A program made the translations under genes and the position numbers. 64,000 bases of DNA from Candidatus Woesebacteria bacterium. GTDB taxonomy: Bacteria > Patescibacteriota > Microgenomatia > UBA8517. The stretch covers positions 354,981 through 418,980 of the forward strand of contig OY970314.1 of assembly GCA_963716475.1 (NCBI GenBank), in the 5' to 3' direction. Positions 11,898 through 35,857 of the stretch are shown one piece after another (positions within the stretch are counted from its first letter, which is position 1; each line of letters starts with the position of its first letter). The notes under the pieces were generated by a model. That model had not been told where the DNA came from. It ran no database searches and worked only from the letters and a program-made list of their open reading frames with translations.

Positions 11898-12335
11898 ATG
11901 AGGGGTAACACCAAGGGTTTTACTCAAATTATTCTTATCATTGTTCTATTGATTATGGTTGGAGGAGCCGCCTATTATTACGGCTCTCAATCTTTAAGGA
12001 TTCCTTCACAGGCAACTTCTACTCTAACAGCAATACCTAATAATATTAATTGCAATACTGACGAAGAATATTTTGTAGACCATCGAAATGGACAGGGTGG
12101 TTGTGTTAAAAAGCCAAGCGATGCTGGCAAGTCTTGTACGAAAAGTTCTGCATGTCAATCGGGATATTGTGTAACAAAGGAGATTAAGGCAACGAAAGGT
12201 ATATGTTACGATTCTTACTATAACATTCCATGCTCTGACTGTTATTGGACAATAGAAAGTTCACAAAAAGCGGAGGTCCGAAAACAAATATCTGGTGGCG
12301 GAGAATCTACTTTTTCCCCTTGTTGTACCTACTAA
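11898..12335 (+). CDS. small secreted Cys-rich protein
   Basis: N-terminal TM/signal segment and 12 or more Cys in the C-terminal 100 aa. Confidence 0.45.
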   Translation: MRGNTKGFTQIILIIVLLIMVGGAAYYYGSQSLRIPSQATSTLTAIPNNINCNTDEEYFVDHRNGQGGCVKKPSDAGKSCTKSSACQSGYCVTKEIKATKGICYDSYYNIPCSDCYWTIESSQKAEVRKQISGGGESTFSPCCTY

Positions 12336-12367
12336 AAGTTAAAAGCAGACTAGAATAACCATAAATG

Positions 12368-12440
12368 TGCCGAGAGGCTGAGTCGAACAGCCATTTGACG
12401 CTCTTCAGGCGCCCGCCTTGACCACCTTGGCTATCTCGGC
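12368..12440 (-). tRNA. tRNA-Phe(GAA)
   Basis: Reverse complement GCCGAGATAGCCAAGGTGGTCAAGGCGGGCGCCTGAAGAGCGTCAAATGGCTGTTCGACTCAGCCTCTCGGCA. Anticodon loop CTGAAGA. TTCGA T-loop. Confidence 0.7.
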
Positions 12441-12460
12441 ATAAACTAAGCGATTGCTAA

Positions 12461-12514
12461 GACAAGATACACTTACCAGGGCTCTGGCTGGCCAAGCTTC
12501 GCTTATCTCGGCCA
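12461..12514 (-). repeat. composite intergenic repeat (copy A) carrying two GTAAGCGAAGC(T/A)TGGCC cores, upstream of tRNA-Phe
   Basis: About 85% identical to 55941..55993. Core also shared with 13074..13097 and 37446..37469. Confidence 0.6.
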
Positions 12515-12665
12515 AAAACCTTTTAATAATAAATATGCAATTCCAAGTAATAATAAACCGCCAAAAATCTTTAAAAGAAAGATAAATTCAGGAAAATCCA
12601 AAAAGAAACCGATTATTTTCCTCCAAATTATAGCTACCCAATAGTCATCTTTTCCCATATTCCGG

Positions 12666-12739
12666 TGGACACTGAGGGGCTCGAACCCCCGACCTCATCG
12701 ATGTAAACGATGCGCTCTAGCCAGCTGAGCTAAGTGTCC
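12666..12739 (-). tRNA. tRNA-Val(TAC)
   Basis: Reverse complement GGACACTTAGCTCAGCTGGCTAGAGCGCATCGTTTACATCGATGAGGTCGGGGGTTCGAGCCCCTCAGTGTCCA. Anticodon loop TTTACAT. Confidence 0.8.
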
Positions 12740-12744
12740 CTAAG

Positions 12745-12825
12745 TGCACCCGGAGAGACTCGAACTCTCACGCCTTTCGGCGTAGCTCCTCAAGCTACCG
12801 CGTATGCCAGTTCCGCCACGGGTGC
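12745..12825 (-). tRNA. tRNA-Leu(GAG)
   Basis: Reverse complement GCACCCGTGGCGGAACTGG...GTAGCTTGAGGAGCTAC... with a long variable arm. Anticodon loop TTGAGGA. Confidence 0.75.
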
Positions 12826-12871
12826 GTATCATAACAAACTGCACTAACCGCAAAAGTTTAGCTTCGACGAG

Positions 12872-12953
12872 TGCAGGTGGGAGGATTTGAACCTCCACGG
12901 GTTGCCCCACACGGCCCTGAACCGTGCGCGTCTGCCAATTCCGCCACATCTGC
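12872..12953 (-). tRNA. tRNA-Leu(CAG)
   Basis: Reverse complement GCAGATGTGGCGGAATTGG...CACGGTTCAGGGCCGTG... with a long variable arm. Anticodon loop TTCAGGG. Confidence 0.75.
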
Positions 12954-12969
12954 AATTATATCGTATTTG

Positions 12970-13041
12970 TGACCCTGGGAAGAATCGAACTTCCATCTCG
13001 TTCTTAGAAGGAACTTGCTCTATCCGTTGAGCTACAGGGCC
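12970..13041 (-). tRNA. tRNA-Arg(TCT)
   Basis: Reverse complement GGCCCTGTAGCTCAACGGATAGAGCAAGTTCCTTCTAAGAACGAGATGGAAGTTCGATTCTTCCCAGGGTCA. Anticodon loop CTTCTAA. Confidence 0.75.
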
Positions 13042-13046
13042 AAATA

Positions 13047-13097
13047 CATACGTATTTTACCATTCATTGGATGAATGGCCAAGCTTCGCTTACTATT
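13047..13097 (-). promoter_or_regulatory. sigma70-type promoter for the five-tRNA array (upstream box GTAAGCGAAGC, -35 TTGGCC, 17 nt spacer, extended -10 TGGTAAAAT)
   Basis: Minus-strand reading ATAGTAAGCGAAGCTTGGCCATTCATCCAATGAATGGTAAAATACGTATGTATTT then the tRNA 5' G. Nearly identical module at 37446..37491. Confidence 0.55.
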
Positions 13098-13134
13098 TGC
13101 ACAGCTAAACGGCTAGGATCTTCTTACATTTAAA

Positions 13135-13482
13135 CTAGATGATTTGTGAGGCTTTGATGAAGACTTTATTTGAACGGAGTTCGTTAAATGTTTTGCAAGG
13201 CTCCACGATTCTTGGATCGGTAATTTTGTAAAAGACGTTTTTACCCTGCCTTCTTGTAGTAACAAGCCCAACATACCTCAGATAAGCTAAATGTTGTGAG
13301 GTGTTGGATTTTCTGGTACCTAACATTTTCGAAAGCTCATTGACCGTGGCTTCCCTATCAACGATACAGTTTAATATCTCGAGACGCTTCGCATTTGCCA
13401 TAACTTTATAAAGCTCGGCATTTTTTCTATAAACTTCCTTACTGAATGGTGATTTTAGTGTAGTATTTTTCTTGTCTGCCAT
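13135..13482 (-). CDS. ArsR/SmtB family transcriptional regulator
   Basis: Winged HTH pattern RLEILNCI...ATVNELSKMLGTRKSNTSQHLAYLRYVGLV...RQGKNVFYKI. Confidence 0.8.
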   Translation of the reverse strand: MADKKNTTLKSPFSKEVYRKNAELYKVMANAKRLEILNCIVDREATVNELSKMLGTRKSNTSQHLAYLRYVGLVTTRRQGKNVFYKITDPRIVEPCKTFNELRSNKVFIKASQII

Positions 13483-19054: not shown

Positions 19055-19138
19055 GCCGAGGTGGCGAAATGGTATACGCAAGGGCCTTAAGAGCCCTCGA
19101 GTGCATAACTCATGCGGGTCCGAGTCCCGCCCTCGGCA
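19055..19138 (+). tRNA. tRNA-Leu(TAA); integration target (attL) of the downstream element
   Basis: GCCGAGGTGGCGAAATGG...AGGGCCTTAAGAGCCCT with a long variable arm then GCGGGTCCGAGTCCCGCCCTCGGCA. The 3' end is repeated at 35858..35886. Confidence 0.75.
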
Positions 19139-20723
19139 CAATACGGGATTCCTGATCGGCAAAGACCCGATTTTGCCATACATACGACATATTCTCAGGT
19201 CCGATCCATTTATTGTTTTCCATCACACTGTTTTGAGCTTCCTTGAAGTATAGAAACACGTTATTCGGTTTAATTTCAATCTTTTTGTCCTTTATTTTCA
19301 GGTCCGATCCGATTATTTTCAAAACCATCTCCCGAGTGTAAGCATCGCCAGTATCAAAAATTTTTAGTACATTCTTTGAGAAGTTTATCGCATTGTCGAG
19401 AACCTCTCCCCACATGGCAATCCTCTTGCTTGTTTGTTGTTCCTTGAGTACCTGCTCACGCATCAATAATTTCGACTTTTTGGCCTCATAGGTATCATTA
19501 TCAATAATTCCGTCTATTTTCATTCCATAGAGTTTTTCCTTTCTTTCGTCAATGTCATTAAGTTCTTTTGTGATTGATTCTCTTTGTTTTATTGAAAAGT
19601 TAAACTCCTCATTGTTCCGGCGTTTCAGGACTTTTCTGAAGTATTCGGCAAACTCGGGATTAAGTTGTAGTTGGGAAACATATTCTCTGATTTGTTTTTC
19701 AAGATCTGCTGCCCTCAGGTACTTCGAATCACAAGGACCCTTTTTCTTCGTACAGTGATAATGAGTAAATATATGAGAAGTTCCATTCTTATAATGTTTG
19801 GTTTTTCTCTCTCCTGTTATGGACGCGCCACAGGGACATTTGAAGATTCCCAAATAAGGGATTGGATCAACCAAAGAATTGGGAGATCCGGCGTTCTTTG
19901 AATCAAGAAGCTTTTGAACCCTTATAAACTCAGACATTGTTATCATTGGCTTATGTATTCCTGGGTAAGTTGTTCCAGAATAGACAAAGTTACCGGTATA
20001 GAAAATGTCCCGAAAAAATCTGAAAGCCACAGTCCTAGATATAGGATTGCCCTTCTTCCCGGTAAGTGCCATTGAGTTCATCTTTTTGAGTATCTGTGGG
20101 ATCGTATAGTGCCCTGTAAGCATCATCTCCCACGCTTTCCGACAAAGACTCCATACTCTTTCATCAGGAACAATATACCTTGCCCCCTTCGGGAATTGAG
20201 GAGTATTGGAATAACCCAAAGGTGCGTTACCGGGATATTCTCCTCGCTCTGCCTTTAATTGAAGTCTGGCTTTGATAATCTTGCTTAATTTGTTTGAATA
20301 CTCTTCATTGAAAAGACTTTCGACACCTGCTTTGAGAATGTTATTTGTATCATAGACGTCGGTCGGGGTTATGATTAGAAGTTTTCCTTGAGTGATAAGG
20401 TCCCGGCAAATACCGTTCTCTTCGCCATTTCTTCCGATCCTGTCCATATTCGAAGTGACAATCGTATCTACTTTGCCCTTCTTGACCAACTCGATCATCT
20501 TGAAAAACTCAACTCTAACATCAGCCTTCCAACCGGTTTTTGCTTCTATAAATGGAGGCGCGATTAGTTTGATTCCTCTGTCCTGAATGATTCTTTTGCA
20601 GATAGTAAGTTGATCCTGAAGCGATAATATCTGCTTATTTTTATCCTCTGAACTCTTCCTACAATAAATGACACCTTGCATATTACCTTCTTCCATAATT
20701 GTCCTTTCCAAGGGGGTTGTCAA
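19110..20723 (-). CDS. large serine recombinase (integrase)
   Basis: N-terminal resolvase domain with GVIYCRKSSEDKNKQ (catalytic Ser), a recombinase domain and the zinc ribbon CPCGASITG...HYHCTKKKGPCDSKY. Its 3' end overlaps the tRNA-Leu 3' end. Confidence 0.8.
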   Translation of the reverse strand: MTTPLERTIMEEGNMQGVIYCRKSSEDKNKQILSLQDQLTICKRIIQDRGIKLIAPPFIEAKTGWKADVRVEFFKMIELVKKGKVDTIVTSNMDRIGRNGEENGICRDLITQGKLLIITPTDVYDTNNILKAGVESLFNEEYSNKLSKIIKARLQLKAERGEYPGNAPLGYSNTPQFPKGARYIVPDERVWSLCRKAWEMMLTGHYTIPQILKKMNSMALTGKKGNPISRTVAFRFFRDIFYTGNFVYSGTTYPGIHKPMITMSEFIRVQKLLDSKNAGSPNSLVDPIPYLGIFKCPCGASITGERKTKHYKNGTSHIFTHYHCTKKKGPCDSKYLRAADLEKQIREYVSQLQLNPEFAEYFRKVLKRRNNEEFNFSIKQRESITKELNDIDERKEKLYGMKIDGIIDNDTYEAKKSKLLMREQVLKEQQTSKRIAMWGEVLDNAINFSKNVLKIFDTGDAYTREMVLKIIGSDLKIKDKKIEIKPNNVFLYFKEAQNSVMENNKWIGPENMSYVWQNRVFADQESRIVPRAGLGPA

Positions 20724-20892
20724 TAGACTGAGTATTTAGCTCGGACCTGTCGAGTGATTCAAGAAACATAATCATTCGGGATGCCTGATCCTCACATTCT
20801 TCAAGTGTCAAATCAAGGTTGTAACATTTCTTGCAAAGCGCCTGAAATTCAAGAACTTCTTCGTGGTTTAGGTAGCCTGTTAGATATCTCAT
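20683..20892 (-). CDS. small hypothetical protein immediately upstream of the recombinase (candidate directionality factor/regulator)
   Basis: 69-aa ORF with position-based inference only. Confidence 0.25.
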   Translation of the reverse strand: MRYLTGYLNHEEVLEFQALCKKCYNLDLTLEECEDQASRMIMFLESLDRSELNTQSIDNPLGKDNYGRR

Positions 20893-20899
20893 TTTTTTC

Positions 20900-22642
20900 T
20901 CAATTTGTATCGTTTAAAATTTCCTCAAATTCCTTGAAATAATCGGATACAAATTTGTCGTCTTTTTGTATTTCTGATTTTTCAATAAATAGGTTGTCTT
21001 TGAACCTGACAACTTTCTTGGTACGCATTTCTTCGAAATCTTTTTTGGAGGCTTGCTTTAAGATGAAATTGTGGCTGTCGATAAACTTTCCGATTTCCTC
21101 TACCCACTTATCTATTTTGGACGTTAAATCCACTTCGTAAACTTTGGATAATTTTTCAAATAAATCTCTAAAAATTAACAGTGTGGAATAGTATTTTTTA
21201 AGTTCTTCAGTGGTGTTTTTAATTAATTCGTTTAGGCTATTGTCTTCAAATTCTATAACCCTTTCTCCATTTACCTCAGTCTCTTTTACAAACTCCATGA
21301 GCTCAATGTAATTCTTGATTCTGGCTATGGTTATTTGGGAGAAATTAAGGGCAAGTGGTTTACCATCTTCGTCCAGATTGGTGATCAAAAGTTCCCGGTC
21401 CAAATGTACCCCTTTTTGTTCCGGATCGTCATCTGCGTACAAAATTCCCAAGTTCGGATCGTAGCGGTCCACGTACTCATTGTGTTCCGCAATAAACTGA
21501 TAATTCCCTTTGAAGGCATAAAGACTATTTCCGGTGACAATATCTCCTTCCTTACTCATTTTTCCGGCAGAAATGAGGCTATCTAATGCGTTTTTGGATT
21601 TGGTTTTGGCCTTAATCCATTCCTTAAAGATAACATCTGAGGATGATTTGGTTACTCCGTTACAAGTTACAGTCTGTGTGGATTTAAATAGGGGCACATA
21701 TTCATCCAATAATCCGTTATCTAACCATTCCAGACAGACGGCTTTTAATTCCGAATCAACTGTTGTTTTGTGTTTGGCGGCATAATCATTAATGGCTTCC
21801 GCTATATTTTCAGCGGTATAGTCTAACAATGCTTCTTCAGGAGTCAGTTTCTTATCTTCCGATACCGCATCAAACGCTTTTTTAAACCTTTCCTCCTCCG
21901 GCAATGTATCCAGTTTGATCTTTCGTTTGTTAATCCACTTCTTAACAACTTCCTTTATGGGAATTGAAGCAAAATAATGCCAGAATTGATACTCCTTGGC
22001 GTATTGATTGTAGGATTTTTTAACAATCAGGTCTGCTAACTTGTTATTATCATCGGCTGTTAGTTTTTCCTTGCCGTCAAAGAGATTTGCAATTGCCTCT
22101 TCCTCGTCCAAATAATCAGTTTCATATTTAGCATCAGGGAAAAGAATTAATAAATCTTCTTGAAGCTCCTTACTTAAACTCTCAAAACCCAGTTGATATA
22201 CGGCGCGATTATAATCTAATCCTCCTTCTAATTTTACCTCCCGTTGTTTTTTGATTATCTCTAGAGCTTGATCAATCTTTACAAGCTTGATGTCATCCAA
22301 TCTTTCAACCCATCTTTTCAATTCCCTAAAAGCCGGGTAAATTAATAAAAAGTTGCTTATTTGTTTTTCCTGGAAAAAAGTAATTTGTGCATTTAGAAAT
22401 ATGGTCTGGGCATCGAGTTCAGCAAATCCGATTGTTCTCCAGCCTCTAATAAAAAGGTTATACTCTTTGACTTCGTAATTGTTCTTTGGTGTCCAACCTT
22501 CAGTTAAAGTATGTTCTTCTGCCTCGCTAAGTACAGCCTTACCAGTTTTTTGTTTCTCCATATAATTGTGAACAACAAGGAGAACTCTCTCTTTTGGAGT
22601 TAAGTTTTCTGAAATCCTAGCTAGATTTAAATCTTTTGACAT
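20900..22642 (-). CDS. hypothetical protein (580 aa), element cargo
   Basis: Long, acidic, Lys/Glu-rich ORF with no recognisable motif. Confidence 0.4.
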   Translation of the reverse strand: MSKDLNLARISENLTPKERVLLVVHNYMEKQKTGKAVLSEAEEHTLTEGWTPKNNYEVKEYNLFIRGWRTIGFAELDAQTIFLNAQITFFQEKQISNFLLIYPAFRELKRWVERLDDIKLVKIDQALEIIKKQREVKLEGGLDYNRAVYQLGFESLSKELQEDLLILFPDAKYETDYLDEEEAIANLFDGKEKLTADDNNKLADLIVKKSYNQYAKEYQFWHYFASIPIKEVVKKWINKRKIKLDTLPEEERFKKAFDAVSEDKKLTPEEALLDYTAENIAEAINDYAAKHKTTVDSELKAVCLEWLDNGLLDEYVPLFKSTQTVTCNGVTKSSSDVIFKEWIKAKTKSKNALDSLISAGKMSKEGDIVTGNSLYAFKGNYQFIAEHNEYVDRYDPNLGILYADDDPEQKGVHLDRELLITNLDEDGKPLALNFSQITIARIKNYIELMEFVKETEVNGERVIEFEDNSLNELIKNTTEELKKYYSTLLIFRDLFEKLSKVYEVDLTSKIDKWVEEIGKFIDSHNFILKQASKKDFEEMRTKKVVRFKDNLFIEKSEIQKDDKFVSDYFKEFEEILNDTN

Positions 22643-22643
22643 T

Positions 22644-23063
22644 TTAATGTTTTGAAATTGAGCGTTTGCGTTCCAAAAGAACGCTTTCTACCATCTCTAC
22701 CCGTTGGTTCAGATTGGAGGCTTCTAGGGCCTTTAGGATGTGGCTGGCGAGGTATCCTACGGTGTTAGCGATATTTGGGGGAATCTCACCGCTCCGGACG
22801 CCATTTATCGTGCTTTCAAGAAGGGTGGCCACTTCTGTCGGGTCTTTAATGCTTAGTGGTTCAAGATTCAGTTCAACCTTTTTACTGGCAAGGCCACCTC
22901 TGACAAGCGCCATATGTCTTTCGACTTCTACGTCTGGATTGTGGACAAAACAGTACACGCTCCCTTTCATGGATGCGGCACCGCATTGATCTCCGTTTTC
23001 TTTTATATAACTGCATTTTTTCTCTTCCATATAAGTTACGCTTATGGGGTGTACCCCCCTCAA
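22644..23063 (-). CDS. hypothetical Cys4 (zinc-finger-like) protein
   Basis: CSYIKENGDQCG...CFVHNP gives four Cys in the N-terminal 40 aa. Confidence 0.35.
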   Translation of the reverse strand: MRGVHPISVTYMEEKKCSYIKENGDQCGAASMKGSVYCFVHNPDVEVERHMALVRGGLASKKVELNLEPLSIKDPTEVATLLESTINGVRSGEIPPNIANTVGYLASHILKALEASNLNQRVEMVESVLLERKRSISKH

Positions 23064-23143
23064 ATTTGATATACTATTGTTTAGTTCTTTTTGCCTCCTA
23101 GTGGGTTCAGTTCCTAGTAGATTGACTAGGAGGCAATACAGAA

Positions 23144-23707
23144 CTACTCCTTTGTTATAAAAGGAGATTCCCCGTCAAAGATAAGATCCAGGTTGATCTG
23201 CTCTAAACGCTCATCAACCAGTTTTTGCATTTCCTTTGACAGCTTTACCTTTGGTTGGGGTAAAAGGGAATACTTAACGTCCATAGGGGAAGTCCCGTTT
23301 GTACGAGTGATCGTTACATCGTAGTCACGAAGATCTCCCCACGCTTCTGAATCCTCAAGACCTTTCATAAGCCTCTGCAATCCCGCTTGGGTCAACTCAA
23401 GGATCTGAACGTCTCCAAGTTCTTTATTTAAAACGACAAACATCCAAAAATGCTTTCCTCTGTTGCGCGGATCCGTTGCATTTCTTATCTCATCCGGAAG
23501 CTCATCGTATGTTCTAACACGAATTGGAGTTCTCTTTTTACCTTCTTCTTTCCAGTATTCAAAACCAACGATTGCGTTAGTAAGAACCCTGAAAGTGCTA
23601 TCGCCTTCATCAAACTTCATGTAGGCTGATCTGCTTTTTGGCATTTCATAGTCTTTGGGTAATATGCTCATATTTTTCTCACCTCCTTTCCGCTGTATAA
23701 AAAGCAA
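23144..23707 (-). CDS. hypothetical protein
   Basis: 187-aa ORF with no confident family. Confidence 0.35.
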   Translation of the reverse strand: MLFIQRKGGEKNMSILPKDYEMPKSRSAYMKFDEGDSTFRVLTNAIVGFEYWKEEGKKRTPIRVRTYDELPDEIRNATDPRNRGKHFWMFVVLNKELGDVQILELTQAGLQRLMKGLEDSEAWGDLRDYDVTITRTNGTSPMDVKYSLLPQPKVKLSKEMQKLVDERLEQINLDLIFDGESPFITKE

Positions 23708-24033
23708 TACTTATTAAATTGAACTGAACTTTCTAATTTGAGCTGGTCCTTAACGGTCCAGGGTTCCGAGACGCCGAAGAGTGCTTCAATGTTGTTGATT
23801 AGAGGAAATATTACTTCAGCCTTATAAAATTCATGTTTTGGTTTGGAGCTTCTGATATAGGGAAGTGTGTATTCACAAAAGCTTTTGAACGTCTTTGTTG
23901 AGATAATTTTGTCAAATTCAATATATATTTTTGTGACATTTTCATTCTTGATAACAATTGCGTCAGCGTTCCTGTGGCAATAAGAACTAAGTACCTCGTC
24001 GCAGTTTACAAATTTGGTTACTAGGTATTTCAT
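23668..24033 (-). CDS. hypothetical protein
   Basis: 121-aa ORF overlapping its neighbours by a few codons (operon-like). Confidence 0.3.
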   Translation of the reverse strand: MKYLVTKFVNCDEVLSSYCHRNADAIVIKNENVTKIYIEFDKIISTKTFKSFCEYTLPYIRSSKPKHEFYKAEVIFPLINNIEALFGVSEPWTVKDQLKLESSVQFNKYCFLYSGKEVRKI

Positions 24034-25730
24034 ACGGGTTCGACCTCACTTTCTACAGGAAACATATTTTGTGATGCCTCCACGCCTTTCTGTGGCTGAA
24101 TGGGAGCATCGGAAGCACGGGAAGCATCCTCCGAGTTGCCAGCATGGTCTGTGTTTGTATCTGGCAACTTGTCAGCTACCCGTTGATTTGCTCCCATTGC
24201 CTCCATGCTTCCATTCTGGGGCTGGTTTTTCATGGAGGCATTTTCATTTACGGAAGCATTTTTTGTTTTCTTGAGGGTGATCGTGTTATTGGTAATTTCC
24301 TCGCCGTGGGTTACAGATATGCCCATCGCCGCAAGATTGGTTTTAATAAGATTTATCTTTCTCCAAAGCCATGTTGCAGATTTAGGGAACCCGTAACTTC
24401 CTCCAACTTCGAGTTTGTCTGCTGTAGCAAGTTTGGATAGTTCGGTAAAAAGGTCTGAGCTTGCCCCTGACCAGTCGTTATGGATTGACATAAACTCCAG
24501 AATTGTTTGGGCGACAGGGGAAGCGTCAATTGCAGCCTTATTTTGTCTGGCAATATTCTTTTCAAAAGCCTGTAAAAATCCATCAACTTCATATCCCAAA
24601 GAAACAGCTGCTGCGGCAGCTACTCTAGCGTAATCAGCCATACGGGGTCTGGTAGGAAGTTTAATATCCTCCTTAATCTTTAGAACCTGAGAAGCTATGT
24701 CAAAGAGGGCTCCAAGGATCTGGGGTTTTTCTTTTTCAAAATCATTCCAGAATTTAGTTTCTTCTCTGCGGTTTGAGTCACTGATTCTTTCAAGAGTAAA
24801 GATCAAACTTCGGTCAAGCAAATCAGCCTTCTCGGCTACCAGGTTTATTCCGTTTAGTCCAACTGCCACCAATAACTCAAATATAATATCGGAATCATCT
24901 GAGAATAATTTCCGTTTTGAAAAACCTAAACCTGTCACAAACCCGGATAAAGAATCCGAGCCTTCAGTTGAGAGGTAACTTAAATTATCAAAATACAGAC
25001 AATAATGGTGACTTGCCATTTGTGTCAGTTCATCTATGGCAGACCTCATCTTCAGTAGGTCAACACGGGAAGGGTCAATTAGCTTTCTGATGACACGGAG
25101 AAGGGTTGATTTCGCGCTGCCTTGCTCTCCTGTCGCGATTATCATTGCCCGAGGGATATCGCAGAAGAGAATAGCCACAAGATAAGTCAAAAACAAAATC
25201 TTGTCCTCGGAGTTTTTGAGGTTAACATACTCGAGTATTTTGCTCAATGCACCGCCTTTTTCAGGAATAGACTGAACCTTTTGATGAGTAAATCGTCGAA
25301 ATAGCGGCGCTTTTGCTTTTACAACTTCCCAGCCTGAGGGAGTTATCTCAACAATGTTGACGTCATCTCCAATATCGTAGGAGATAGTTTCCTCAATTTT
25401 AGCTATGCGATTAAAGAGTGATATTTTTATGCCTTCGTGTTGAGATTTTCCTTCCAATGCAGCCATAGCCTGAGAAAAGATTTCACTGGAAAAACCTTCA
25501 TTAAAAGCTTCCCAATAAACTCCTGAAACCCATCGTCTGAATACCGCACCGGAAACGGAGTAACCAACCGCGGGCCTATCTGGTAACTGTACTTGGGGTT
25601 CGCCAAATTGATCCAAAAAGAACTTGCAACCTCTCTTTAGCACCAGTGTTATCAATATGTCGCCAACTTTCTGCTGTTTGACTAATTCATTAGCCGCTTT
25701 GTCGAGTACTTCTTTATTTTTAGCTTTCAT
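24030..25730 (-). CDS. P-loop NTPase of the phage/plasmid primase-helicase (D5/VirE/P4-alpha C-terminal) type
   Basis: Walker A IIATGEQGSAKSTLL and Walker B HHYCLYFDNL. Lies immediately downstream of a CHC2 primase zinc-finger gene. Confidence 0.55.
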   Translation of the reverse strand: MKAKNKEVLDKAANELVKQQKVGDILITLVLKRGCKFFLDQFGEPQVQLPDRPAVGYSVSGAVFRRWVSGVYWEAFNEGFSSEIFSQAMAALEGKSQHEGIKISLFNRIAKIEETISYDIGDDVNIVEITPSGWEVVKAKAPLFRRFTHQKVQSIPEKGGALSKILEYVNLKNSEDKILFLTYLVAILFCDIPRAMIIATGEQGSAKSTLLRVIRKLIDPSRVDLLKMRSAIDELTQMASHHYCLYFDNLSYLSTEGSDSLSGFVTGLGFSKRKLFSDDSDIIFELLVAVGLNGINLVAEKADLLDRSLIFTLERISDSNRREETKFWNDFEKEKPQILGALFDIASQVLKIKEDIKLPTRPRMADYARVAAAAAVSLGYEVDGFLQAFEKNIARQNKAAIDASPVAQTILEFMSIHNDWSGASSDLFTELSKLATADKLEVGGSYGFPKSATWLWRKINLIKTNLAAMGISVTHGEEITNNTITLKKTKNASVNENASMKNQPQNGSMEAMGANQRVADKLPDTNTDHAGNSEDASRASDAPIQPQKGVEASQNMFPVESEVEPV

Positions 25731-26338
25731 ATTTGTAATTTGCTAACAATCTCCATAAATCCCATTTCCGGGTTAGTCTTTTGCATAAAATCGATTGCAT
25801 TGTTGCCATGGGCGGCACAGCCAAAACAGTGCCATGAACCATTCGGATAAATGTAAAAAGAAGGATTACGTTCTTCGTGGAATGGGCAAGCTACACGAAA
25901 CTTGCAACCACACGGCCTTGCGTCAGGAATCAAATCTTGAGTCGGGTACTCCCTTGCTTTTTGGACCTTGGCGCTGGTAGTATATTTAACTCCTGGTTCA
26001 TAGCCGGAGAGCCGTAGCCAGTATTTTAACCACTTTTTAAAGTTTTCTTCATGTAGTTCGACTGAACATTCCAACACTTTTTTGTGAAAATCGCTGAGGG
26101 GTTTGGCAGTTTTTATTTCGGCAAAAAATTTTTCCCTATCTGCATACAGTTCTTTAATTTTGGCTACGGCAACATCTTCGACGCAACTCTTAAATTCTGG
26201 TTCAATAGGAATGTACCGCGGTGGATTTGTTACTTTCCTTTTGAATTTAAGTGGGAAAGCCGTGTGGTTTATAACGAGTTGAGGTTGGCTATCCATAAAT
26301 TTGTTCACTGAAACCCAATCGATTCGAGATGTTTTCAT
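25727..26338 (-). CDS. CHC2-type primase zinc-finger protein
   Basis: C-terminal CPFHEERNPSFYIYPNGSWHCFGCAAHGNNAIDFM matches the DnaG/primase CHC2 zinc finger. Confidence 0.6.
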   Translation of the reverse strand: MKTSRIDWVSVNKFMDSQPQLVINHTAFPLKFKRKVTNPPRYIPIEPEFKSCVEDVAVAKIKELYADREKFFAEIKTAKPLSDFHKKVLECSVELHEENFKKWLKYWLRLSGYEPGVKYTTSAKVQKAREYPTQDLIPDARPCGCKFRVACPFHEERNPSFYIYPNGSWHCFGCAAHGNNAIDFMQKTNPEMGFMEIVSKLQI

Positions 26339-26345
26339 AATTTCT

Positions 26346-26612
26346 TTATGTTTGTTGATACAATTTGTCCTTTAATTGTTTTATTGCCATCACAAATTTA
26401 CGAACATCAACCATAGACTCCGGTGAGTCCTCCGATGAATAATTGAAGTTTTGAAGTAATCGCTCACGTTCTGGAGTATCTAAAAAAACAAATTCGGAGC
26501 GTCTTGAATCAGTACGATCTATGTTGACAAGTTCCAACCCTTTGGTAAAAAGGAAAGCCGCAACATAAAAGTTGCTTGTTTTAAAATATCTGTCGTCACT
26601 TTTATCCTTCAT
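26346..26612 (-). CDS. hypothetical protein
   Basis: 88-aa ORF with no motif. Confidence 0.3.
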   Translation of the reverse strand: MKDKSDDRYFKTSNFYVAAFLFTKGLELVNIDRTDSRRSEFVFLDTPERERLLQNFNYSSEDSPESMVDVRKFVMAIKQLKDKLYQQT

Positions 26613-26943
26613 ATGCGATTAGTCCTAAAAATTCGATGGGTGTCGCGGATTCCAATAGATACTCGCCGTTTTCTTCTCGGAGGATCTCTGAAAAAGTCAG
26701 ATGATTTGTATCAAGAAACCTCTTCTTTCGATAGGCTGCTTTTATTAAATCTCTAATCTTGTTATTCAGAATATTGTTTACGAAAGTCGAGGCTGAAGCG
26801 TACATGGGATTAAACAGATTGCCCTTAAGCCAAAGGTGAATCCGAAGTTCCTGGGCAACATCTTCCCAGTCCATATTGGGAACCTGGGCCTTGATGGCCT
26901 TTGCTACGATAACATTCTCATATTTAGAAAAAATTATACTCAT
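26602..26943 (-). CDS. sigma-70 region-2-like protein (minimal ECF-like sigma factor; no region 4 detected)
   Basis: DWEDVAQELRIHLW...FNPMYASASTFVNNILNNKIRDLIKAAYRK resembles ECF sigma region 2. Confidence 0.4.
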   Translation of the reverse strand: MSIIFSKYENVIVAKAIKAQVPNMDWEDVAQELRIHLWLKGNLFNPMYASASTFVNNILNNKIRDLIKAAYRKKRFLDTNHLTFSEILREENGEYLLESATPIEFLGLIAYEG

Positions 26944-27148
26944 ATCTATTGAAGGACTCTTGGAGTGGTTGAGGCCAATAAAAAAGGGCTCTCAATCAAC
27001 CCCAATATGTCCATAATTCATATTGGAATCAATTGATAGCCCTTCTTATCGCTACCTGGGTTAGCCTTGTTAGCTAACTATGTAAATTATACCATAAAAC
27101 CTAAAAACTTTTCGGGTTTTTATCCCCTCTATAGTAATATACGACAAT

Positions 27149-29074
27149 TCATGCACCCCAACCCCAATCAATTTCCCTGTAGTTAATATTTTTACACCTG
27201 GGACATCGTGCCGATAGGGTAAGGTTCCCATAATTTAGCTTTACCTTTATGGGAATTTGATTCGCCGTCCACAGGCTGACCACATTATTATGCGCGAACT
27301 TATAAAGCGTTCTTTCTCCACAAAAATCGCACTTCCACTCACCAACTTTAATTTTTGACCAGTCTTGCCCAATATCCAAGGCCCCAGATTCAATCCTTGC
27401 TAAACACTCATCACAAATAGGAGTATCCGAGACCTGACTATCACCGTGTTGTTGATGTCTAATTACCGGTTTTGCTCTACATACTCTACAGAACAGAAGC
27501 TCCATTTGGAATTCAATATCGGAAAGCTCAGCGCCCTTATTTTGCCAGTGCTGAGCGTTCTTGTGGACCTTTTGATATTCCTTGTTATAGAAATCTAGCT
27601 GTTTTTCTCTGGTCAAAGTTTTTAATTTTTCGCTTCGCTTAGACCAAAAAAAATTGCCAAAATTATGCTCCTCATCCCAAGCTTTGTTTTCTTTTTCCCT
27701 TATCTTTTTATGACAGACTTCAAGTATTTCCCATAACTCTCTTTTTAGGTCACTAAGCCTGAAGTCTATGGCATTATGTATTTCGCTTTTAACAAAAAGT
27801 TCATAATCCTCCTTTTTGGCCTCCTCGGAAGTAATTTCCTTCTTTTGCAGCTTCTGCCATATTTCATCGTCCCAAAGACTAAGAAACCCGCGTTTATTTT
27901 CAGCTAATTCTTTCGTGGCTTGTCGTAAAACCTGTTCAACTGATAACTTGGTATTCGGGTCCAGGTCGTCGATTGTTAAACTTTCCTCAAGCTCGATTGG
28001 TCTAACACCGTTGGCAATAAAGTGCATATCTCCATACCTTTTTTCATAATCCTTTAGTTCTTCCTCGAAGCCCTTAATTCTAGTTTGTACTTCATCATCG
28101 GCAAACTCTTTGTTGTCCGCCTTCGCTGCCCATATCTTAAAACCCAAGACGGTTGCCCAAATTGATTTCGTTTCAGTTCCGTGGACATACTCGCTTTTTG
28201 GTGCAAGGTATGGACGAATACCCCTATCTCCATAAAGTAACTCAAAGATGGGTGGCAATTTTTTACCAAATACAGCCTCCGCGACCTCTAAAACTAGGTC
28301 ATAAACTGTATATAGCTCCTGGGCTAGCATTGCACCACCTTTAAATAAATCCCTTCGCCATTGCGGATGAAGATGGATGTAGTAATACCAATTTTCAAGC
28401 GGGTCAATCTGGATAGCAACTTCAGCAATTGTCTTCAAAAGGACGTTGAGATCGGATTCAGAAAGCGAATACTTCTTTAATAATTCTGGCCTACCTTTAA
28501 TAAGTGAAGTATCAAAATATAATTCCGGTGCACCGTTAAAATGCCGTTCCTTGTACCGGCTAAATCTTTGGTACCTCGAACTTTTAAGAGAGTGGAGTAG
28601 TCTCAAAAAATTATTAAAATTTACACATAGATCAACCACATTATTAGGAAACGATTTACTACCCCTCTTGGCAATTGTTATGTTGAAAGCAAATCCAGAA
28701 GCCCCCCAACTAACCATTCTGAACGCTTGTTGTTTGTAAAAGTCTAAATCCTCATTGACCCAAAGTTTTCCTTCGTGAACTTGGTTTTTTGACAACGCGG
28801 TAATTATAAAAATTTGATGGGGACTATAATAATTAACTAAAGCTCCTTTTTCTGCCCCATTTTCGTGAACTTTTTCTTTAACCTGAAGTAGTGGTTCTAA
28901 AAACCCATCGGATTCTGCTGCTCTTAGAAAACTCTCATCTACATTGTTAATTTTTTCAGTGCGGGAGTAATCATATTTACAGAACTCTATAAAAGATTTT
29001 TCCGAAAGTAACTTCTCCTTTATAATTTCAAATGGATATTTATTCTCATCTTTAGTACTCATATTTATATTCAC
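27149..29074 (-). CDS. hypothetical 641-aa protein with C-terminal multi-zinc-ribbon module
   Basis: CRVCRAK...CDEC, CDFCGERT and CPRCKNINY CxxC pairs in the last 120 aa. Confidence 0.4.
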   Translation of the reverse strand: MNINMSTKDENKYPFEIIKEKLLSEKSFIEFCKYDYSRTEKINNVDESFLRAAESDGFLEPLLQVKEKVHENGAEKGALVNYYSPHQIFIITALSKNQVHEGKLWVNEDLDFYKQQAFRMVSWGASGFAFNITIAKRGSKSFPNNVVDLCVNFNNFLRLLHSLKSSRYQRFSRYKERHFNGAPELYFDTSLIKGRPELLKKYSLSESDLNVLLKTIAEVAIQIDPLENWYYYIHLHPQWRRDLFKGGAMLAQELYTVYDLVLEVAEAVFGKKLPPIFELLYGDRGIRPYLAPKSEYVHGTETKSIWATVLGFKIWAAKADNKEFADDEVQTRIKGFEEELKDYEKRYGDMHFIANGVRPIELEESLTIDDLDPNTKLSVEQVLRQATKELAENKRGFLSLWDDEIWQKLQKKEITSEEAKKEDYELFVKSEIHNAIDFRLSDLKRELWEILEVCHKKIREKENKAWDEEHNFGNFFWSKRSEKLKTLTREKQLDFYNKEYQKVHKNAQHWQNKGAELSDIEFQMELLFCRVCRAKPVIRHQQHGDSQVSDTPICDECLARIESGALDIGQDWSKIKVGEWKCDFCGERTLYKFAHNNVVSLWTANQIPIKVKLNYGNLTLSARCPRCKNINYREIDWGWGA

Positions 29075-29136
29075 AAAAAAACCCGTTTATCACGGGCAGT
29101 GTAATATCTGTATTTTACGCCTTTCCAAATAAAACG

Positions 29137-29997
29137 CTACTTAGCTGGAGATGCTTTATTCAAAAATTCTGAAATAATATTTACCGGAATTATTACGCCA
29201 AGGTTTTGATAGTTGCCAGTTAAAACAGCTGAAGGAATTCCAACCATGCAATCATTTTGATCAACAGCAAGCCCTCCTGAATTTCCATTATCTATATTGG
29301 CAGACGTTAGGATATCCCCATCATCAGAAAAACTACTTATGATTCCGTCTGTAATGGTTAGATTGTATCCGCCACTTGTAACTGGATAACCATAAATCCT
29401 AACTGCGTCACCCAATTTTGGACTATTGTTTTTGCAACTACTAGGGAACACAAAAGCAGAAAAAGTTTTAGGGTAGGTACCCCAAACCTTCCCGTCCGAA
29501 TCCTTATAAGCAGAGGTTACTACCAATACTGCCATATCATATTGCTTACTCAATTTAGGAACAATATATGGCTCTGCATTGTAGATTTCAGCGGGGGCAC
29601 CAGTATTTGGGTCAGGCAAGCTAACCAAACAGCCTTTTGAACCAGCTATAACATGATTGTTTGTTAATATCGTTCCGTCCGTTAACCATATTGTTCCTGA
29701 TCCTCCTTCTTTGTTATCGCAAAATACGTTGACAACAGAAGATGCTACATTATACGGTACGGTCGGGCTAGGTGACCCACCAGACGGTGTGTTGGAATTG
29801 GGAGAATTTTGAGAGTAGGCAATTATAAAAATTACCAATAGTATTAAAAAAACTAAAATTAATCCCTTTCTACGTTTAATCCACCCGCCTAAACGGTACT
29901 TCAATCTTGAGAGTCTCCTCCATACGATTTTCTGCCCACAATTCGGGCAGAATCTTTCATCCGACTTAATTTGATTGCCACAATTTTTACAATACAT
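29137..29997 (-). CDS. N-terminal zinc-ribbon + TM + trypsin-like (S1) serine protease
   Basis: MYCKNCGNQIKSDERFCPNCGQ zinc ribbon and a TM helix. Candidate S1 triad motifs LTNNHV (His), DMAVLVV (Asp) and GNSGG (Ser). Confidence 0.55.
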   Translation of the reverse strand: MYCKNCGNQIKSDERFCPNCGQKIVWRRLSRLKYRLGGWIKRRKGLILVFLILLVIFIIAYSQNSPNSNTPSGGSPSPTVPYNVASSVVNVFCDNKEGGSGTIWLTDGTILTNNHVIAGSKGCLVSLPDPNTGAPAEIYNAEPYIVPKLSKQYDMAVLVVTSAYKDSDGKVWGTYPKTFSAFVFPSSCKNNSPKLGDAVRIYGYPVTSGGYNLTITDGIISSFSDDGDILTSANIDNGNSGGLAVDQNDCMVGIPSAVLTGNYQNLGVIIPVNIISEFLNKASPAK

Positions 29998-30008
29998 AAT
30001 AAACTTTC

Positions 30009-30383
30009 TTAATCCTCTCTCATTCCGATTGTTGGAACAAAGCGCCCTATGTTATTAATAAGGTATATTGGCGTAAGAAAAAAAGAAATCATACCCCACC
30101 ATCCAAGGAAAAGCGTAGTTAGAGTCCTCTTTTTAAACTCACGATTTATACATTTTTTACAAAGATTGCCTTTTATAGACGAACTCTGACGCATAACCAG
30201 CATGCCTATATTTTGGTAAAACTCGACATATTTTGTTGGAGTAAGGCTGCCACACACCTGACAATGGTTATTAGTCGGTCCAAAAACCGGCGAAGAGGGA
30301 TTATTCTTATTAATTATTGTTCCACAATGCTGACAGAAGTTGTTGCTTTTAGGATTGCTTTTTCCACATTTTTCGCAGAACAT
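30009..30383 (-). CDS. zinc-ribbon membrane protein (paralogous N-terminal DZR-like domain)
   Basis: MFCEKCGKSNPKSNNFCQHCG plus further CxxC pairs and a C-terminal TM helix. Confidence 0.45.
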   Translation of the reverse strand: MFCEKCGKSNPKSNNFCQHCGTIINKNNPSSPVFGPTNNHCQVCGSLTPTKYVEFYQNIGMLVMRQSSSIKGNLCKKCINREFKKRTLTTLFLGWWGMISFFLTPIYLINNIGRFVPTIGMRED

Positions 30384-30509
30384 AATCTTTGAGAAATTTG
30401 CCTAAACTACCCCCAAATTGAATTGTACTCTAAAAATAAATCCATTTCTTAGATTTTATTGAAAAATAGGTGTAGAATCAATTTGGTTGGGTAGTCTAAA
30501 ATAAATAAT

Positions 30510-31133
30510 ATGTACTGCAGTAATTGTGGGAAACACAACTCCGAAGGCAGTAAGTTTTGCGAACACTGTGGCTCACAGCTTATAAAAGACTCTGCAGAAA
30601 ATAAATCCGTTAGCCAGGCTAAGGCTGTAGTTGATCCCCCAAAAACAGAAAATAAGGAGCCTTTGCCAAAAGATAAAAAAGTAAATGCTGGACTTGGGGG
30701 CTGGTTGGCATTAGTTGGACTAGGAATGATCGTGGGGGTTGTTTGGCAAAGCTACAGCATATTTGGATATTTTTCCTATTTATCAAATACTTATACTATT
30801 CCTGGTTACTCAAGTCTTTTATGGTTTGAGTTTTTAATAGGAGTCGCCTTTATAGGTTCTCTTGTTTATCTAATCTATTTATATTTCAAAAAGAAGAAGA
30901 ATTTTCCGAAATACTATGTTTTTTATTTAATCGCCTCTATAGTTTTTGCATTATTGGATTGGCTCTGGGTAGCTTCATTACAGGCTCCGACTCAAGAACT
31001 TCAAAAAATACTAAACGACACGGTAACGCAAAATTCAAGCAATGTATCCCGAACCGTAGTGCAATCAGTAATTTGGATTTTGTATATGTTAAAGTCGAAA
31101 CAGGTTAAGGCAACTTTTATTGAAGATAAATAA
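30510..31133 (+). CDS. zinc-ribbon membrane protein (paralogous N-terminal DZR-like domain)
   Basis: MYCSNCGKHNSEGSKFCEHCGS followed by 4 TM helices. Confidence 0.5.
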   Translation: MYCSNCGKHNSEGSKFCEHCGSQLIKDSAENKSVSQAKAVVDPPKTENKEPLPKDKKVNAGLGGWLALVGLGMIVGVVWQSYSIFGYFSYLSNTYTIPGYSSLLWFEFLIGVAFIGSLVYLIYLYFKKKKNFPKYYVFYLIASIVFALLDWLWVASLQAPTQELQKILNDTVTQNSSNVSRTVVQSVIWILYMLKSKQVKATFIEDK

Positions 31134-31141
31134 ACTAAACT

Positions 31142-31741
31142 ATGAAAATTATTAAGCAAGTCGTCTATGTTGTAGCAGCGCTGGCAGCATTCGGTTTGGT
31201 CAGGTGGGGTATTTCAGCTCTTCAAACTAACAATGCCAGTAATAACACTGCCAATTATTTTACAAATGAGACTTGGCAACCATTTAACTCAACAGAAGGC
31301 GGTTTTAGTATTAACTTTCCTAAATATCCAACAACCAATCCCTCAGAAACCCAAAGCACGGGTGGTGTGACCTACGTTTCTACACAATATAGCGCCGAGG
31401 GCAGTGACGGAGATAGTTATGTTGCTATTTACGGTTATTACCCAAATCTTTTATCAAATAAATACAATGCAAAAAGTGGAATTGAAGGTAGCATTAACGG
31501 TATGGTTAGCTCAGATAAATCGAACCAGTTAATATCCTCAAACTTTGTGAATGTCGGTAGCCATCAGGGAGCGGATTACGTAATTTACAATAAAGACGTG
31601 GCTTCTTATTTGAGAGGAAGAGTAATTGTTGTTTTAGAAGGAAGTAATCCTGTCAAAATATATATCCTCATGGATGCGTCAAAAAACGCAAACGCCACAG
31701 ACAACTATACAAAATTTATTAACAGTTTTGAGATTCAATAG
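31142..31741 (+). CDS. secreted hypothetical protein
   Basis: Signal/TM N-terminus with a Ser/Asn/Thr-rich body. Confidence 0.4.
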   Translation: MKIIKQVVYVVAALAAFGLVRWGISALQTNNASNNTANYFTNETWQPFNSTEGGFSINFPKYPTTNPSETQSTGGVTYVSTQYSAEGSDGDSYVAIYGYYPNLLSNKYNAKSGIEGSINGMVSSDKSNQLISSNFVNVGSHQGADYVIYNKDVASYLRGRVIVVLEGSNPVKIYILMDASKNANATDNYTKFINSFEIQ

Positions 31742-31742
31742 T

Positions 31743-31762
31743 TAGTGAGTTGGAGTGGGGGG
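31743..31762 (+). repeat. intergenic motif TAGTGAGTTGGAGTGGGGGG (copy 1 of 4)
   Basis: Same motif at 32688..32709, 34949..34965 and 35753..35770, all in plus orientation. Confidence 0.5.
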
Positions 31763-31807
31763 TATTTCTTAGGTTTTCCTGAAAAAGTGGTGTAAAATCG
31801 ACTTGTT

Positions 31808-32671: not shown

Positions 32672-32687
32672 CTCGATCTATTTTATA

Positions 32688-32709
32688 AATAGTGAGTTGG
32701 GTTGTGGGG
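32688..32709 (+). repeat. intergenic motif AATAGTGAGTTGGGTTGTGGGG (copy 2 of 4)
   Basis: See 31743..31762. Confidence 0.5.
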
Positions 32710-32726
32710 TTATTGTGTTTTAAAAG

Positions 32727-34892: not shown

Positions 34893-34948
34893 TTTTATTG
34901 GTATTTAGAGGGCTTATGTGAATCTTAGCATCTGGGGATAAAAATAAA

Positions 34949-34965
34949 CAGTGAGTTGGAGTGTG
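34949..34965 (+). repeat. intergenic motif CAGTGAGTTGGAGTGTG (copy 3 of 4)
   Basis: See 31743..31762. Confidence 0.5.
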
Positions 34966-35015
34966 TATTCCAAAGATTTCTCCAAAAAAAGCATAGACTC
35001 TGGAAATGAATGGAA

Positions 35016-35726: not shown

Positions 35727-35752
35727 ACTCGTATTTTACACCTTTATATGTA

Positions 35753-35770: not shown

Positions 35771-35857
35771 AATAAAGTCTCCGGTATTCGTTAAGTTCCT
35801 GAAGTTTAGAAGCTAGAATATCAGTCTCACTTGGAGTATCATTCAGATAGGCGAATA

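Follow-up and report, generated by a model that had tools for sequence, protein, structure and literature searches.

Why should two separate transfer RNA (tRNA) units in one bacterial genome be preceded by almost the same short piece of DNA? The question is raised by a 64,000-nucleotide (nt) stretch of Candidatus Woesebacteria DNA (assembly GCA_963716475.1, contig OY970314.1, positions 354,981 to 418,980; the whole stretch is referred to below as the window), in which a near-identical segment stands directly before tRNA-Arg(tct) and before tRNA-Pro. The first-pass annotation of this DNA had taken the segment for a promoter dedicated to tRNA and other stable-RNA genes. Here we propose, with a probability of roughly 0.7, that it is instead a copy of a miniature double-hairpin repeat family present in Woesebacteria and related Patescibacteria, and that one type of this repeat, 33 nt long, is a promoter. 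The two segments are built as follows.

13042-13097, minus strand: pre-tRNA-Arg(tct) segment, ATAGTAAGCGAAGCTTGGCCATTCATCCAATGAATGGTAAAATACGTATGTATTT, directly before tRNA-Arg(tct) (12969-13041).
13079-13092, minus strand: core TAAGCGAAGCTTGG of the Arg copy, which holds a GCGAAGC mini-hairpin.
13077-13082, minus strand: -35-like TTGGCC of the Arg copy, made of the 3' end of the core and the next CC.
13060-13078, minus strand: 19-nt perfect hairpin of the Arg copy, CCATTCAT-CCA-ATGAATGG, which sets a 17-nt spacer.
13054-13059, minus strand: -10 hexamer TAAAAT of the Arg copy, with the tRNA-Arg(tct) 5' end (13041) 12 nt downstream.
37446-37497, plus strand: pre-tRNA-Pro segment, ATGGTAAGCGAAGCTTGGCCATTTCCAAACCGAAATGGTAAAATACATATAT, directly before tRNA-Pro (37498-37571).
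37450-37463, plus strand: core TAAGCGAAGCTTGG of the Pro copy, with the -35-like TTGGCC at 37460-37465.
37464-37483, plus strand: 20-nt hairpin of the Pro copy, CCATTTC-CAAACC-GAAATGG, which gives an 18-nt spacer.
37484-37489, plus strand: -10 hexamer TAAAAT of the Pro copy, with the tRNA-Pro 5' end (37498) 8 nt downstream.

The similarity noticed at first pass holds on recount: the first block is identical at 22 of 23 positions (20 of 21 had been counted) and the second, ATGGTAAAATAC, at 12 of 12. The 15-mer AAGCGAAGCTTGGCC has three exact matches in the 64-kb window and seven with up to three mismatches, against 1.27 expected and with seven reached by none of 100 shuffles, so that the identity of the Arg and Pro blocks is far beyond chance. 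A consensus scan likewise bears out the sigma-70 geometry, giving TTGGCC-17-TAAAAT for Arg and TTGGCC-18-TAAAAT for Pro with TG before both -10 boxes; both copies carry the extended -10 TGGTAAAAT, and in the Arg copy the 3' TGG of the hairpin serves as its TGn. The predicted start had been placed 6-10 nt before the tRNA, but the distances from the -10 box to the tRNA 5' ends (12 and 8 nt) imply an expected leader of about 2-6 nt. The spacers, described as diverging, do differ in their letters, yet both are perfect hairpins related by compensatory changes (CCATTCAT/ATGAATGG versus CCATTTC/GAAATGG).

The same architecture recurs in many other contigs. The repeat unit consists of the 14-nt core TAAGCGAAGCTTGG, a perfect Watson-Crick hairpin of the form CCA...TGG spanning 13, 16 or 19 nt, and then TA. 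The core contains AAGC-GAA-GCTT, which includes GCGAAGC, a classic and very stable DNA mini-hairpin with a melting temperature of 76.5 °C (PMC13037366). An exact scan for the 17-mer TAAGCGAAGCTTGGCCA returned 22 genome loci (loci are designated by L and a number), seven of them in metagenome-assembled genomes (MAGs) labelled Woesebacteria or Patescibacteria; L020 shares the tRNA synteny of the window, three loci are low-GC MAGs labelled Gammaproteobacteria, and most of the remainder look like chance matches. A metagenome scan gave at least 120 loci, mostly low-GC contigs with the architecture described here. The named homologs of the window's enolase, at 78-94% identity, are mostly labelled Candidatus Woesebacteria, Microgenomates or Patescibacteria, and a scan of viral contigs provided no phage link, its six matches all being chance-like, inside coding sequence and without the hairpin. 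One of the loci labelled uncultured Gammaproteobacteria, L009 (CAZCNT010000020.1), carries the repeat family together with a tRNA-Gly(tcc) at 243-314 that is identical to the window's at 72 of 72 positions; its label is probably a binning error, and those of L005 and L010 may be so too.

Family statistics were collected on 148 copies in low-GC loci, each with up to two mismatches to the core. CCA follows the core directly in 122 of these, and a perfect stem of at least 4 bp starts right after the core in 86, with TA next in 72 of the 86. Of 61 distinct hairpins, 47 measure 13, 16 or 19 nt (P = 3e-12 when one third is expected), and the elements are therefore mostly 27, 30 or 33 nt long, a rule that holds outside open reading frames (ORFs) as well. 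Pairing is strict: among 63 distinct hairpins with at least five pairs, 60 are perfect and three have a single mismatch, none of these G-T. The hairpin variants CCAAATCAGAATTTGG, CCAGTCAGAGCCCTGG and CCAAAGAGTACTTTGG recur across unrelated contigs, and the perfect stems in the window start with CCA and end with TGG (CCATTCAT/ATGAATGG, CCATTTC/GAAATGG, CCAG/CTGG). GG precedes the core more often than any other dinucleotide (54 of 148), TA or sometimes TGGTA is found at both element junctions, tandem arrays are common (L026, L042, L074, L130), and copy density is about 1 per 10 kb. The family is previously unreported; no paper containing the core sequence was found, and the literature yielded nothing relevant on palindromic or in-frame repeats in the candidate phyla radiation (CPR), on leaderless promoters of Patescibacteria or on MITEs (miniature transposable elements with inverted repeats) in them.

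Two other origins were considered and rejected. A sequencing linker artefact, suggested by the HindIII and MscI sites in the core, does not agree with the occurrence of the repeat in independent assemblies from several projects and as diverged orthologous copies, and a tRNA-like origin, suggested by the resemblance of the reverse of CCAAATCAGAATTTGG to a Gln anticodon arm, does not fit the other hairpin variants. An expanded form was seen at L010 (6700-6760, minus strand), in the third of the tandem units before tRNA-Ala(ggc), with 36 nt inserted in place of the GAA loop of the core (AAGC, then TGATCCGATTTCATCGGACCACATCGCAAGCGAT, then GAAGCTT). The insert bears two further small hairpins and may represent either a nested insertion or an extended version of the element; a hammerhead-like three-way junction was discarded here, since the conserved hammerhead core is absent.

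The genomic contexts of the copies are varied. Within 120 nt upstream of a tRNA lie 33 of the 148 copies, a 28-fold enrichment, and 32 of the 33 are co-oriented with that tRNA. About 18 pre-tRNA copies are themselves preceded by a duplicate of the tRNA leader and 5' part that ends at the D-loop G18G19-TA, and in L009, L066, L117, L128 and L141 the arm that follows the core repeats the tRNA D-arm in inverted form. Intergenic copies have a co-oriented downstream gene in 38 cases against 7. Other copies stand in frame inside long ORFs in both orientations, encoding the peptide (D/G)KRSLAS..GK in sense and ..GQASLI in antisense; the host ORFs include the tails of ribosomal protein L17, the interdomain linker of phosphoenolpyruvate (PEP) synthase, an aminoacyl-tRNA synthetase, a PolX-like protein and glycosyltransferases. 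The sampled loci suggest that most copies lie away from stable-RNA genes.

Beyond the Arg and Pro copies, the window holds four or five more (one before tRNA-Phe, two before enolase, one antisense at tRNA-Gly(tcc) and one decayed), located as follows.

12476-12505, minus strand: Phe copy, 30 nt, of a non-promoter subfamily (exact core at 12492-12505, then CCAGCCAGAGCCCTGG), about 50 nt upstream of tRNA-Phe.
55943-55986, minus strand: degenerate tandem copies before enolase, TAAGCGAAGCATGG and CCAGTTAGGGCCCTGG, then a truncated TAAGCGAAGCTTGT, within a 79-nt insertion.
55925-55932, minus strand: extended -10 TGTAGAAT that closes the enolase insertion on its 3' side, 6 nt ahead of the ATG of the gene (55918).
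55984-56003, minus strand: upstream copy of a direct repeat of about 20 nt, ATTTAA(A)TATGAGCAAGATAA, a duplicated enolase start whose downstream copy lies at about 55906-55926.
38369-38382, minus strand: degenerate core TAAGCAAAGCTTGA of the tRNA-Gly(tcc) copy, antisense at the tRNA-Gly(tcc) 3' end.
43267-43299, minus strand: decayed copy GTAGCGGAGCTTGGACAGTCAAAACCCCGGTAA, with three mismatches in the 15-mer and a broken CCAGTCAAAGCCCTGG-type hairpin.

Several of these sites are empty in relatives. In L149-L153, whose enolase is 90-94% identical, the PEP synthase gene ends 1-2 nt before the enolase ATG or overlaps it; in the window, 79 additional nt with a 20-nt duplication separate the PEP synthase stop from the start codon of enolase. 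Because this insertion ends in TGTAGAAT 6 nt before the ATG, enolase appears to have gained its own extended -10. At tRNA-Gly(tcc), the LytR_C gene of L157 stops 2 nt from the tRNA 3' end, and the window has 97 extra nt that include the element copy. The copy upstream of tRNA-Phe is absent from the same site in L020, L154 and L156; conversely, L020 has a copy with a 20-nt duplication upstream of tRNA-Gly(gcc) and the window does not. Empty sites among relatives were thus found at four places (enolase, tRNA-Gly(tcc), tRNA-Phe and tRNA-Gly(gcc)), while at two further copies the comparison of L149 with the window was too diverged to give a clean empty site.

Duplication of the flank accompanies many of the copies. 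Duplications of at least 9 nt flank about 30% of them, against about 1% in a shuffled-partner control, and range in length from 9 to 30 nt (from 9 to at least 27 nt by the systematic measure, whose measuring window ends at 27). The Phe copy is flanked by the direct repeat GCCGAGATA at 12504-12512 and 12432-12440, the latter being tRNA-Phe positions +1 to +9. At tRNA-Gly(tcc), the core is followed by the hairpin CTCAAAATCTGATTTTTGAG (38346-38365), and the copy is flanked by GAGCGGGATA, the tRNA-Gly 3' end, at 38381-38390 and 38339-38348; this copy lies between convergent genes, which is not a promoter position. A degenerate partial second copy of the tRNA-Gly(tcc) 3' end (TGAGCGGAATA) was also seen at 38391-38445 on the minus strand, upstream of the element copy, which suggests two successive duplication events at this site. 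Unequal crossing-over between TGGTA repeats was tried as the source of the duplications; it fits tandem arrays but not the first tRNA 5' duplication, seen in L073 and L102 without an upstream copy.

The Phe copy also alters the reading of the tRNA cluster, for which a single module upstream of an Arg/Leu/Leu/Val/Phe array had been described. The Arg copy is indeed in place, but tRNA-Phe, with an exact core of its own upstream, should not be read simply as the final member of the Arg array. The spacer between tRNA-Val(tac) and tRNA-Phe is an insertion hot spot: it measures 223 nt in the window (12441-12663), 4 nt in L020 and 22 nt in L154, and L156 carries a LAGLIDADG ORF between the positions of the two tRNAs.

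Only part of the family has promoter features. Among noncoding copies with a 19-nt hairpin (CCATTT…AAATGG), TAAAAT, TAGAAT or TAAACT comes next in 12 of 13, giving TTGGCC-17-TAAAAT, and copies with 13- and 16-nt hairpins mostly continue into TAAAAA, TAAACA, TAAGCG or the next core. In the promoter-type copies that were checked, a tRNA 5' end follows the -10 box by 8-13 nt or an ATG by 6-9 nt, the latter in L001, L015, L029 (two copies), L064, L065 and L136. The protein genes behind the module encode a 5'-3' exonuclease, RNase H, UvrB, a CutA-like protein and small membrane proteins; ribosomal-protein or stable-RNA genes are not among them (0 cases). Both L029 copies and the L064 copy share TAAAATTGGG after the hairpin. 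In the window, a covariance model built from 12 promoter-type copies and run with cmsearch gives 65 bits for Arg, 61 for Pro, 26 for enolase, 25 for Phe and 16 for Gly; it finds no match at the other tRNAs, which have plain TGnTATAAT boxes.

Orthologous loci show which part of the module is retained, beginning with the DNA upstream of tRNA-Pro.

L157: TAGACGATGCTTGG-TCATTTCgtgaaTGAAATGA-TAAAAT.
L158 (2860-2970): three tandem promoter-type modules with the core TAAGCAGAGCTTGG.
L159 (2629-2732): TATGCACAGCTTGG-CCATTTCGAAGCGAGATGG-TAAAAT, then a 19-nt tRNA-Pro 5' fragment and a second copy.

All three keep GCTTGG, the hairpin and TAAAAT while the 5' half of the core drifts, and in L157 a compensatory change of CC/GG to TC/GA gives the stem TCATTTC/GAAATGA. 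The 5' core has decayed at the orthologous promoters to TAGACGATGC, TAAGCAGAGC and TATGCACAGC and is lost in L156, where tRNA-Arg(tct) is preceded by CCTTAGCC-18-TAAAAT (14 bits); in L020, GTGGTAAAAT is kept upstream of tRNA-Arg(tct) and the core has diverged. Retention of the 3' part and decay of the 5' core argue for a promoter role of the former and against an UP-element or activator role of GTAAGCGAAGC, the block to which such a role had been assigned. From their geometry, context and conservation, the Arg and Pro copies very probably act as promoters. The module also fits its surroundings, in that 17 sites in the window have TAnAAT followed after 5-9 nt by the start codon of a long ORF, many with TGn (e.g. 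58280, 52272, 37429, 35738, 30497, 39185), which suggests that genes in this genome are as a rule transcribed without leaders from extended -10 promoters.

The tRNA-Pro promoter locus keeps being remodelled by the element, as in L158 and L159. In the window it adjoins the divergent promoter region of a PIG-L deacetylase gene (37424-37452, minus strand), which has TAAAAT 6 nt before its ATG and a -35-like TTACCA, which on the opposite strand reads TGGTAA and lies at the 5' edge of the tRNA-Pro module; given this overlap, the module may serve both directions.

Does the hairpin work as DNA or as RNA? Across the 12 aligned promoter-type copies, 96.5% of cells are paired and three pairs covary; the helix has undergone 12 two-sided changes and no one-sided change, a score reached by none of 500 shuffles, and the CCATT/AATGG arms are invariant. 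The predicted fold of the module, two adjacent hairpins, and the position of some copies after genes (an arsR-like gene, the LytR_C gene) could speak for an element that acts as RNA, whether as a processing or stability signal, a small RNA, or an attenuator or terminator hairpin. Against this, the stems have no G-U (in DNA, G-T) pairs, the promoter-type hairpin lies upstream of the predicted start, and copies occur in both orientations inside ORFs. Rfam, searched at its gathering threshold and up to E <= 10, matched only tRNAs, the best for the module being a chance-level 11-bit match (E = 7.5). No terminator-like site was found at 12300-13200, which covers the Arg and Phe copies; TAA and not a T-run follows the hairpin, and the sole terminator-like site near tRNA-Pro (37310-37328) is outside the module. 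These observations point to a palindrome at the DNA level, which may be kept either by selection, for a cruciform or for protein binding, or by templated correction of quasi-palindromes; an RNA role appears the least likely of all the explanations considered here.

On the repeat-family explanation, the family would spread at the DNA level, inserting next to TA and often at GG|TA. The versions of 27 and 30 nt, which occur in frame within ORFs, as arrays and next to fragments of tRNAs, would be passengers. In the version of 33 nt, to which the Arg and Pro copies belong, CTTGGCC would supply a -35-like hexamer, the 19-20-nt hairpin would set a spacer of 17-18 nt, and the terminal TGG with TAAAAT would form an extended -10, from which a sigma-70-type polymerase would start about 7 nt downstream, yielding a 2-6-nt tRNA leader here and leaderless mRNA elsewhere. 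A wider proposal, which we offer tentatively and hold to be somewhat less probable than not, is that these repeats, ultra-short at 27-33 nt, make up a class of mobile DNA elements of CPR bacteria that has not been described before, with a double hairpin based on GCGAAGC, kept at multiples of three and spread by a hairpin or template-switch process that copies the flank, with one subfamily acting as a portable promoter (-35, spacer and extended -10) that makes genes independent and leaderless, as at enolase. Hairpin or template-switch copying of the local flank would explain both the inverted tRNA D-arm copies and the 9-30-nt duplications of gene 5' ends.

How do other explanations compare? The most probable of them, though it still seems to us unlikely, is that the element is a passenger only, which inserts at the GG|TA of an extended -10 (TGGTAAAAT) or of the D-loop G18G19-TA, the real promoter being a pre-existing extended -10 to whose transcription the core and hairpin contribute nothing. 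The preferences for TA after the hairpin (72 of 86) and for GG before the core agree with it, as do copies lying exactly at GG|TA inside tRNA 5' fragments (L068, L075, L126), the many plain extended -10 promoters without a -35 in the window, and the non-canonical spacing between core and -10 in L060 and L073. Against it, the -10 box is tied to the 19-nt hairpin (12 of 13), and hairpins of 13 or 16 nt mostly have other sequences next to them, which indicates a specialised variant with a 17-nt spacer more than random landing; moreover, TAAAATTGGG, common to L029 and L064, makes the -10 appear to travel with the element, and orthologs keep GCTTGG and the spacer length. We regard as improbable that a dimeric regulator has its operator in the palindrome CCATT-N9-AATGG, or in the nearly palindromic core GCGAAGCTTGGC (symmetric at 10 of 12 positions), or that the palindrome is a cruciform which makes the promoter sensitive to supercoiling. 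The invariant arms in 12 promoter-type copies and a palindrome kept in orthologs by compensatory change within a non-transcribed spacer would suit it, and artificial promoters with a spacer palindrome reportedly respond to cruciform extrusion, in work by Horwitz and Loeb in 1988. Within a single genome, though, the inner stems differ between copies and are still complementary (Arg and Pro in the window; the two L029 copies), so that structure or a templated origin fits better than the half-sites of one protein, and the other subfamilies have unrelated stems, with no regulator identified.

The original idea was that of a stable-RNA promoter specific to the lineage, with GTAAGCGAAGC serving as an UP element or as the site of an activator that would regulate tRNA, rRNA and ribosomal-protein genes together; on present evidence it is distinctly improbable. 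It draws on the sharing of one module with correct sigma-70 geometry by two tRNA units and on the strong enrichment of copies upstream of tRNAs. Of the 14 tRNA genes that ARAGORN and Rfam identify in the window, just two have the full module, which precedes exonuclease, RNase H and UvrB genes as well. A motif search does not bear out a restriction to rRNA, tRNA and ribosomal-protein promoters, since the GTAAGCGAAGC block is also seen within ORFs, where copies are arrayed in tandem, and in antisense orientation at the 3' end of a tRNA. GTAAGCGAAGC forms the conserved core of a repeat that is dispersed and polymorphic in its insertion; at the orthologous tRNA-Pro and tRNA-Arg promoters no other part is conserved so little, and, with 6 G/C in 11 bases, it is not the A/T-rich block at about -40 to -60 that an UP element should be. 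It is very improbable, finally, that the core is a tag for some other DNA process, either a competence DNA-uptake sequence or a primase signal on the GCGAAGC mini-hairpin. The core is conserved over many contigs while its surroundings vary, and GNA mini-hairpins are found at the priming sites of phage G4 and RSF1010 and in phage N4 promoters (PMC13037366). Copies arrive, however, as whole 27-33-nt units with empty sites and flank duplications, unlike the accumulation of uptake sequences, their density is about that of one in 10 kb given above, and their orientation follows that of genes only where they are intergenic.

Several observations weigh against the repeat-family explanation and its promoter component. 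The -35-like TTGGCC, at 17 and 18 nt from the Arg and Pro -10 boxes, is weak, matching the consensus at TTG and one more base (4 of 6), and the extended -10 alone could suffice. In L060 and L073 the core is only 13 and 10 nt from TAAAAT, and a preference for inserting at GG|TA, which extended -10 boxes and tRNA D-loops both contain, could account for part of the association with TGGTAAAAT. The counts among the 148 copies include homologous loci from several metagenomes and are not fully independent. No terminal inverted repeats were found, the 5' end TAAGCGAAGC having no inverted counterpart at the variable 3' end; nor was a clear target duplication of fixed length or a candidate mobilising enzyme seen, Pfam revealing no transposase near the modules among 20 window ORFs. 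What the word mobile describes here is, as a consequence, presence or absence at particular sites together with copy number.

In its behaviour the repeat appears closest, by analogy, to Correia-type promoter MITEs, Rickettsia palindromic elements (RPEs) and mitochondrial hairpin elements. Correia elements, MITEs of Neisseria, are likewise short, non-coding, dispersed and insertion-polymorphic and often lie right upstream of genes, and some subtypes supply sigma-70-like promoter hexamers to the neighbouring gene (PMC10969869). They are about 100-200 bp long, with terminal inverted repeats and a TA target duplication, whereas the present element has 27-33 nt and no such repeats, its variable part is an internal perfect hairpin, and its promoter activity is, in this comparison, a prediction. 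RPEs stand in frame in unrelated housekeeping genes and are read as an extra peptide (PMC10969869), much like the palindromic copies in unrelated ORFs here; they measure about 100-150 bp and form families in Rickettsia, in contrast to units of 27, 30 or 33 nt in Woesebacteria, and neither a promoter subfamily nor tRNA 5' duplication has been described for them. In fungal and sponge mitochondria, hairpin and double-hairpin elements are very short, with one or two hairpins, occur between genes and in rRNA and protein genes, stay in transcripts and move by an unknown route (PMC2800124). These are organellar, differ in composition, lack a conserved 14-nt core across genomes and have no described promoter role.

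Repetitive extragenic palindromic (REP) sequences and their mosaics (BIMEs), served by RAYT (Y1 HUH), and palindromes derived from IS200/IS605 combine a short motif with an imperfect palindrome and are thought to be handled as single-stranded DNA hairpins; like the element described here, they have no classical terminal inverted repeats. REPs are extragenic, specific to a genome or species and paired with a RAYT gene, while the present copies also lie in ORFs and share one core over many contigs; a genome-wide search for RAYT or TnpA was not made. Dispersed, non-coding and polymorphic copies are what is expected of a MITE, but we do not file the element there because it lacks terminal inverted repeats, nor among REPs because copies lie in ORFs. 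Extended -10 sigma-70 leaderless promoters, for their part, have the same TGnTAnAAT, start about 7 nt further downstream and are followed by an ATG at 6-9 nt from the -10; ordinary ones are not copies of a mobile unit and have no covarying perfect palindrome in the spacer.

A separate integrated element of about 16.7 kb (19110-35885) was seen adjoining tRNA-Leu(taa). It encodes a large serine recombinase (19110-20723, minus strand; Resolvase, Recombinase and Zn_ribbon_recom domains) and has a 20-nt direct repeat of the tRNA 3' end, CCGAGTCCCGCCCTCGGCAC, at 19120-19139 and 35866-35885; in L157 and L158 the PIG-L deacetylase gene lies instead directly beside tRNA-Leu(taa) and the CTP synthase gene.

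For uncultured bacteria whose transcription signals are essentially unstudied, the module provides a compact candidate promoter of about 45 nt, and it suggests that in this group transcription is normally leaderless and driven by an extended -10. It also means that a very small genome (about 0.98 Mb) still carries a proliferating repeat. Through it operons are rewired, enolase having apparently acquired a separate promoter, housekeeping proteins receive extra peptides, and pieces of tRNA genes are left behind. Annotation of MAGs is affected through spurious small ORFs, apparent insertions in conserved proteins and pseudo-tRNA fragments. A covarying palindrome in a non-transcribed promoter spacer, together with insertions that copy their flanks, presents mechanistic puzzles in its own right.

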